A model generated the notes under the pieces. That model did not search any database. It saw only the letters and a program-made list of their open reading frames with translations, and was not told the origin of the DNA. Positions 43,390 through 43,989 of a stretch of 64,000 bases of DNA are shown here, one piece after another. Made by a program: the position numbers and the translations under genes. Numbering within the stretch: the stretch's first letter is position 1; every line of letters starts with the position of its first letter. This DNA is from Escherichia coli (GTDB lineage Bacteria > Pseudomonadota > Gammaproteobacteria > Enterobacterales > Enterobacteriaceae): the NCBI RefSeq assembly GCF_048403405.1, contig NZ_CP183129.1, one strand, 5' to 3'.

Positions 43390-43989
43390 TCAGAAACGGT
43401 ATCCGATACCAACAATAAATGCATCCGTTCGCCAGTCGCCACTACCGGAACCTTCATAAGCAAGGTCAATGGTTACGGATTCGGTCGGGTTAAACTGCAC
43501 GCCAGCCCCCCACGCCAGAGACGTGTTGCTGTGGCGACCGTCATCACTTCCGGTCAGCACATCGTGCGTTTTCCCCTTGTTGTCAGTTACGCGGAGATAA
43601 TCCCCGGAGAAAGTCGACACACGGCTGTAAGCCACACCCACCATCGCATACGCGCTGAACCATTCATTCACGCGTACAGACGGCCCCGCCATCACGCTGA
43701 ACCAGCGGTTACGCACGGAATCTTCATGCCAGCGGGTATCGCTGTAGTGCGTTTTTTGCTCATCCTCAGCATTGGCATAACTGAAGGACGTAATCAGCCC
43801 CAGCGCGTCCGTAAACTCATAACGGTATTTCACGTTAATCCCGTTCAGATTATCGCTGCCGGGAGCGTTCGTACGGGCATGAAGATACCCCGCGCTCAGT
43901 GTGGACTGATGTTCAGACGCCCATGCAGGCGCACCGGATACGGACAGACAGATGGCTGCGGACAAAATGGCTGCACAAACTTTACGCAT
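43390..43989 (-). CDS. lom: Lom outer-membrane protein (Ail/Lom family)
   Basis: 199-aa ORF with signal peptide and C-terminal beta-barrel ending GIGYRF. Confidence 0.9.
   Translation of the reverse strand: MRKVCAAILSAAICLSVSGAPAWASEHQSTLSAGYLHARTNAPGSDNLNGINVKYRYEFTDALGLITSFSYANAEDEQKTHYSDTRWHEDSVRNRWFSVMAGPSVRVNEWFSAYAMVGVAYSRVSTFSGDYLRVTDNKGKTHDVLTGSDDGRHSNTSLAWGAGVQFNPTESVTIDLAYEGSGSGDWRTDAFIVGIGYRF

Follow-up and report, generated by a model that had tools for sequence, protein, structure and literature searches.

In the prophage contained in the 64,000-nucleotide stretch of the Escherichia coli contig NZ_CP183129.1 analysed here (the window), the gene lom (43390-43989, − strand) is probably, though by a judgement that leaves considerable room for doubt, a gene of the late operon that would be reached through Q-antiterminated read-through, and it is not demonstrably a conversion gene expressed by the lysogen. 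We favor this reading because a terminator stands on either side of the gene, because there is no promoter near the 67-nt spacer that separates it from J, and because its RNA is close to zero in uninduced EPEC.

The identity of the gene can be stated plainly. Its reading frame opens with an ATG at 43989, closes with a TGA at 43390-43392 and encodes 199 amino acids, and what reads as its Shine-Dalgarno sequence, GAGAGG (43995-44000, − strand), lies 5 nt before the ATG and is unchanged in all 18 aligned relatives, lambda included. The product matches the Pfam family Ail_Lom (PF06316) over residues 1-199 of 199, scoring 418.3 bits (E 5.8e-126) where the cut-off is 23, and also PHROG 108, “Lom outer membrane protein” (4.5e-109); the open frame and this full-length match confirm the Ail/Lom-family outer-membrane gene that an earlier note on this DNA had placed at 43390-43989. 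Lom is a member of that family, since it carries all of its marks that could be examined: (i) the N-terminus reads as a Sec signal peptide, MRKVCAAILSAAICLSVSGAPAWA, with an A-x-A site (it ends in AWA) followed by SEHQ; (ii) a small barrel of eight strands is predicted by the AlphaFold2 model (mean pLDDT 73, with low confidence in the first strand and loop), which has a helix at 2-18 ahead of strand 1 and strands at residues 29-33, 49-58, 63-81, 86-108, 111-135, 141-166, 172-181 and 190-198; (iii) and finally, the C-terminus, ...VGIGYRF, provides the aromatic beta-signal for insertion in the outer membrane, its G196, Y197 and F199 being invariant in 18 homologues, as is the longer C-terminal block AYEGSGSG.W.T..FIVG.GY.F.

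A Foldseek search with the model gave OmpX (1qj9) and Ail (3qra/3qrc) as the best matches, at an E of ~4e-10 and with TM scores, normalised to the target, of 0.70-0.75. Among solved structures, the best match to the protein is lambda Lom (9wso, E 6e-48); OmpX and Yersinia Ail come next, at ~4e-20. The NCBIfam equivalog models for OmpX (102 bits, cut-off 176) and for “resistance to complement killing” (111 bits, cut-off 258) both fall below their cut-offs, for which reason the protein, as judged from its sequence, belongs to the Lom type and is an equivalog of neither of these families. As regards the structure of the lambda protein, chain C of 9wso is Lom, the J and Stf sequences of the window retrieved no chains of this entry, and a literature search for a paper on a Lom-receptor structure behind it found none. 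Neither the gene nor its place is new: lom has been known at the position between J and stf since the sequence of lambda, and thousands of E. coli genomes have this very allele in their annotation. A megablast search with the 901 bases around lom returned many E. coli chromosomes at 100% identity, in which the gene is annotated as “Ail/Lom family outer membrane beta-barrel protein.”

The prophage is lambda-like, has its late genes on the − strand of the window and is inserted at ompW, being of the type of PP6 of EPEC E2348/69. A truncated ompW fragment at ~37865-37990 marks the attachment site, and the ompW-trp insertion site is common to this prophage, to PP6 and to the “PPompW” phages of EHEC; in the strain VR50 the lom region lies at the end of a lambda-like prophage, beside yciK-trp-yciGFE and a truncated ompW. 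On one side of lom lies J, the gene of the tail tip attachment protein (44057-47530, − strand), with seven gpJ Pfam domains and a match to lambda J in the PDB at E = 0. On the other, beyond a spacer of 151 nt, lies stf, the gene of the side tail fibre (40212-43238, − strand; 1008 aa), with the Pfam domains phage_tail_N, Gp34_trimer and Collar and with PDB matches to T4 gp37 and to the N-terminus of lambda Stf, a tail fibre assembly gene being located downstream of it. The position of lom between J and stf given by the earlier note is borne out by these domains. The C-terminus of J (44057-44950) matches “A8 gpJ 713” (9wca, E 3e-186) ahead of the C-terminal fragment of lambda J (8xcj, 3e-164), and because it is closer to the former, the receptor of this phage may be other than LamB. 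The S49 head protease/scaffold gene (57653-59157, − strand) is split into two reading frames, one (58858-59157) of 99 aa and the other (57653-58879) of 408 aa, the VR50 protein being an unsplit one of 501 aa; this split suggests a frameshift and, with it, a prophage that is possibly defective. The tape measure gene, which is frameshifted in VR50, is intact in the window (50220-52793).

Several other features of the window may be recorded at this point. Within 38579-40212, the tail fibre assembly gene occurs once in full (39628-40212) and once more as a partial copy of its 3′ end (38579-38848); between the two lies, on the + strand, a gene for a class I SAM methyltransferase (38905-39573). The 3′ portion of the full copy contains an Rfam match to IS009 (39671-39869, 225 bits). 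The codons ~110-480 of stf (~41800-42950) form a long low-complexity stretch rich in Ala, Ser and Thr, which generates spurious long reading frames, such as those at 41834-42952 (− strand) and 42004-42741 (+ strand). In the chromosomal part, Rfam identifies STnc180 (14613-14815), STnc490 (20473-20596) and the trp operon leader (29464-29557).

The most characteristic property of the locus is the pair of hairpins that enclose lom, both of which were located by a terminator scan on the − strand. The upstream one, GGGCGCCA-GAAA-TGGCGCCT followed by T6 (TTTTTTATT), occupies 44011-44038 (stem 44019-44038), has 8 pairs, of which 6 are G-C, with a folding energy of −15.7 kcal/mol, starts 18 nt past the stop codon of J (44057), and leaves 13 nt to the Shine-Dalgarno sequence of lom and 24 to its ATG. 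The downstream one, GAAGCCCGTGGCG-TCACTG-CTGCGGGCTTT followed by T7 (43253-43259), occupies 43251-43286; its stem (43286..43257) has 13 pairs, 7 of them G-C, with −20.5 kcal/mol, its base lies 103 nt past the lom stop, and its T7 run ends 3 nt ahead of the stf Shine-Dalgarno sequence, with the stf start codon 15 nt after T7. The earlier note had described a single terminator, a strong hairpin with T7 after lom, and this element is indeed present, as the scan recovers its 13-pair stem; the second, upstream element at 44019-44038 had been missed. Both are specific to the lom strand, the opposite strand being without a T-run, and in their G+C-rich stem-loop, U-tract, location on the transcribed strand and intergenic position both qualify as intrinsic terminators.

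The two terminators are a conserved and selected feature of the lom cassette, rather than a product of chance, because they recur in relatives and because comparable sites are scarce on the late strand. In the 1.7-kb region of lom the scan counts 4 terminator-like sites, where shuffled sequences give 1.4 ± 1.1, and a count over the whole late strand of the window (~26 kb) gives no more than four sites with 8 pairs or more: those that follow the D-like decoration gene (57240-57261, − strand), the E-like major capsid gene (56155-56175, − strand), J and lom, the first two being likewise strong hairpins with a T-run. Among relatives, the structure is kept while the sequence changes, as is expected of intrinsic terminators. 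The upstream hairpin presents one compensatory change from G-C to A-U, with both intermediates present, as well as inversions of the whole hairpin; its covariation involves only one varying pair, and the observed value, reached in 18 of 500 shuffles, is not significant by itself. At the position of the downstream terminator there are at least four sequence-distinct elements composed of a hairpin and a T-run. In prophages of Salmonella and Citrobacter, with a Lom 69% identical to that of the window, a hairpin with a T-run is again found on each side, yet with other sequences, and the downstream one always abuts the ribosome-binding site of stf. The order J-lom-stf is kept, wherever the flank suffices, in 80 viral contigs with close Lom relatives, all of which carry lom because they were retrieved by a search with Lom.

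A different kind of event is seen in L025 (~2245-2960), where 711 bp have been inserted between the lom terminator, immediately past its T-run, and stf, at a spot where an IS200 transposase is annotated in E. coli ML35; through this insertion, stf would be cut off from the late transcript. It was considered as possible evidence that lom and its terminator move together and was rejected as such, since it is an insertion of 711 bp beyond which stf resumes.

With respect to a promoter, no sigma-70-like site with at least 9/12 matches was found on the lom strand between 42800 and 44500 by a consensus scan, a procedure that is blind to weak, activator-dependent or alternative-sigma promoters. With the threshold relaxed to 8/12, only two poor matches appeared, both deep in J, and the best within the 600 nt upstream of lom lies 470 nt from it. 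A promoter-like site was likewise absent from lambda lom under the same scan.

The expression of an almost identical locus can be followed in the published RNA-seq of EPEC E2348/69 (PMC8550237, Table S2; normalised BaseMean), which covers two uninduced laboratory conditions, activating and non-activating, in a strain other than that of the window. The lom of PP6 (E2348C_1438) differs from that of the window by one mismatch in 901 bases (99.9%) and encodes the identical protein (WP_001233154.1). Its BaseMean is 2.0 under activating and 0.34 under non-activating conditions, the corresponding values being 15.0 and 6.7 for J, 7.0 and 5.3 for stf, and 16.9 and 10.6 for tfa; per base, the RNA of lom is not above that of the silent flanking J and stf. 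The small RNA gene PasB of the same prophage reaches 482 and 1082, the cargo genes just past the tail fibre genes 205-583 and 48-538, and ompW 432 under non-activating conditions; the late genes near lom range over 1.6-17 and PasB, ompW and the cargo genes over 48-1082. The second lom copy of this strain (PP2, E2348C_0715) has a BaseMean of 4.8, and the adjacent nleH 362. Multi-mapping of reads was examined as the cause of the low lom counts and rejected, as 53 of 600 positions distinguish the two copies, which share no identical run longer than 116 nt. The claim of the earlier note that lom is expressed from prophages thus finds no support at this near-identical locus, whose uninduced RNA per base does not exceed that of J and stf. 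The absence of transcription outside phage induction, which that note had named as the finding that would count against it, is nearly what is seen in the only public data set located.

If these data are put together, lom would be a cassette within the late tail operon, enclosed by its two terminators between J and stf. RNA polymerase coming from the late promoter and carrying the Q modification (both Q and this promoter lie outside the window) would read through the two hairpins, in such a way that J, lom and stf would be transcribed jointly after induction and Lom would be made alongside J and Stf. In the repressed prophage, unmodified polymerase would be halted at the hairpins, and for this reason lom and stf would stay at background. 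A further role of the hairpins would probably be to give processed late mRNA a stable 3′ end. Once made, Lom would be exported by Sec and then inserted in the outer membrane as an eight-strand barrel of the Ail/Lom/OmpX type, with the long surface-exposed hairpins that the model predicts.

The hairpins could instead be mainly stabilisers of RNA 3′ ends, or processing boundaries that set the ratios of the J, lom and stf messages, and not insulators; we consider this a possible but rather doubtful alternative. It would accord with the fact that the other strong sites with a hairpin and T-run follow abundant head genes, a distribution typical of differential mRNA stability, and with the behavior of lambda Q, since a polymerase modified by Q passes terminators and would ignore these. 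However, both hairpins are followed by complete U-tracts (T6, T7), a feature superfluous for a simple stabiliser, and such a role would be compatible with the late-operon explanation rather than exclusive of it.

An unlikely alternative, taken as a whole, is that lom is a classic moron or lysogenic-conversion gene: an unrecognised promoter of its own would overlap the upstream hairpin or lie in the 3′-terminal part of J, and transcription of lom from the repressed prophage would end at its own terminator, the lysogen gaining adhesion or serum resistance. Passages of two papers (PMC7067206; PMC12366544) count lambda lom among the genes expressed in the lysogen, and the lom of phi24B, in a different genomic context, is expressed equally with and without induction and hence uncoupled from it (PMC3342100). 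The strength of the downstream terminator, the closest folds, which are those of Ail and OmpX, and the persistence of an intact lom, 100% identical in many strains while other prophage genes are frameshifted, would also suit a gene of this kind. Nevertheless, a promoter-like site is absent, a terminator stands directly upstream of the ribosome-binding site, the GC content of lom (54.7%) does not deviate (prophage 54.2%, J 56.8%, stf 52.0%), the PP6 allele and the second copy remain at background in uninduced EPEC while nearby cargo genes are expressed, and lom was undetected in a lambda lysogen array. Of the four properties of morons that were tested, lom lacks three (promoter, deviant composition and expression in the lysogen) and possesses one, its own terminator. 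The name of lysogenic-conversion gene, which the earlier note had applied, therefore rests on the literature on lambda and is unsupported for the allele of the window, with its two terminators, its lack of a promoter site and its ordinary GC.

The 3′ UTR of lom deserves separate consideration. The spacers between lom and stf in relatives are of two unrelated types: a lambda-like “type A” of 64 nt (GCCCGCC-GGTTCA-GGCGGGC-T6), without the extra hairpin HP1, and the “type B” of 151 nt that is present in the window, with HP1 at 43315-43349 (− strand; −17.8 kcal/mol in RNAfold). The entire 151-nt UTR folds with z = −3.6. In PhiR5_1 and P-EibA, respectively, identity to the window is 100% and 96% in the J-lom spacer, 82% and 79% in the lom coding sequence, 80% in both for the proximal 3′ UTR, 96% in both for the distal 81 nt, and 70% in both for the first 150 nt of stf; the distal block (43253-43333), which extends from the 3′ arm of HP1 to the terminator, is 96-100% identical in PhiR5_1, P-EibA and PhiR49_2. 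It is very improbable that this block is a functional RNA from the late transcript, for example a small RNA of the Hfq type derived from the 3′ UTR: such an RNA would be in line with the greater conservation of the block than of lom (79-82%) and stf (70%), with the folding of the UTR and with the occurrence of small RNAs in prophage tail operons, PasB being 4 kb upstream, yet Rfam contains no family that matches the lom flanks (the whole window at the gathering threshold, and 43000-44300 at E up to 10, every hit there falling far short of the threshold), E2348C_1438 and its flanking intergenic region are absent from the EPEC RIL-seq tables, most relatives have the 64-nt UTR that lacks the block, and the conserved island may be a mere recombination joint. 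The block could also, jointly with the equally conserved J-lom spacer, be a fixed point at which phages exchange their lom alleles.

Two known RNAs were also considered as counterparts of this UTR and rejected. The microRNA-size 24B_1 RNA of phi24B comes from the spacer between lom and vb_24B_43, which is a different region of 428 bp, and the flanks of its locus are absent from the window with 3 mismatches allowed; PasB, for its part, maps to the gap between the tail genes I and J. This gap measures 343 nt (47531-47873), the two genes being nearly adjacent in lambda, and contains on the + strand a strong promoter-like site, TTCACA-16-TATAAT (11/12; 47736-47763), and a terminator (47842-47866), a unit (~47770-47866) whose RNA, of ~95 nt, would run antisense to the late genes. 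This terminator agrees in sequence with the Northern probe published for PasB, the Hfq-dependent small RNA of EPEC PP6, and with the last 25 nt at the 3′ end of that RNA, and the 5′ body has diverged; the RNA is probably a variant of PasB, for which Rfam returned no match. Another antisense fragment, L094 30229-30250 (E2348/69 765228-765249, − strand), lies opposite the J-lom spacer and the adjoining end of J in the prophage PP2, and the published RIL-seq tables hold 14 Hfq chimeras between it and the cueR intergenic region.

As for the function of a Lom made late, lambda Lom expressed from a plasmid blocks lambda-vir strongly and specifically, and its authors propose that Lom prevents unproductive adsorption during lysis, thereby sparing the progeny (PMC12366544); in a passage of the same paper lambda Lom is described as rising strongly late in infection. 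Adhesion is the other role given for lambda Lom in the literature. The invariant place of lom beside the two adsorption genes is consistent with the proposal that adsorption is blocked. On the other hand, identical Lom proteins are found in combination with different J proteins, whose C-termini have 79% and 95% identity to that of the window, and this variation argues against a strict receptor-matched partner. The lom of the window, promoterless according to the scan, boxed in by terminators and, in its EPEC allele, silent without induction, fits the proposal of a late-acting Lom. Consequently, caution is advisable with the label of “lysogenic-conversion gene,” which is routinely copied onto every prophage lom, and predictions of virulence from the presence of lom alone should be treated with care.

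The comparison with known systems begins with lambda itself, whose lom (NP_040601; PDB 9wso) lies, like that of the window, between J and stf/orf-401. The two proteins belong to the same family and align over their full length with 42% identity, the C-terminal AYEGSGSGDWRTD.FIVG.GY.F being invariant, and the two genes share the same context of Shine-Dalgarno sequence and ATG and the same arrangement of a hairpin and T-run on either side. The lambda hairpins, CGTCCGGGAACGGGCG-TTTTATTAT downstream of J and GCCCGCCGGAACCGGTGGGC-TTTTTT downstream of lom, are nevertheless unrelated in sequence to those of the window. Lambda Lom has 206 aa versus the 199 of the window protein, whose first loop is shorter, and the 3′ UTR of lom is 64 nt in lambda versus 151 nt, with an extra hairpin, in the window.

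The lom of PP6, a prophage of the “PPompW” type in EPEC E2348/69, coincides with that of the window in the protein, in the ompW-trp site and in the spacers of 67 and 151 nt; PP6 differs in its cargo of T3SS effectors (nleA, nleH and nleF) and in its shorter stf, whereas the window has the 1008-aa stf and the methyltransferase. Yersinia Ail and E. coli OmpX are homologous to Lom over residues 26-199 (E ~4e-20) and are the top structural matches of its predicted model; unlike Lom, they are chromosomal, of ~150 aa and with shorter loops. Morons of the HK97 gp15 type resemble lom in being accessory and non-essential genes within the tail operon, followed by a terminator, but lom differs from them in having no promoter, no deviation in GC and, in the available data, no expression from the repressed prophage. 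Finally, Llp of T5 and Cor of phi80, N15 and HK022 are receptor-masking proteins whose genes lie beside those of receptor-binding proteins, and they are lipoproteins that act on FhuA. Lom could be seen as their analogue, both because its gene, that of a small envelope protein, adjoins the adsorption genes and because a role against the adsorption of sister phages has been proposed for it (PMC12366544).
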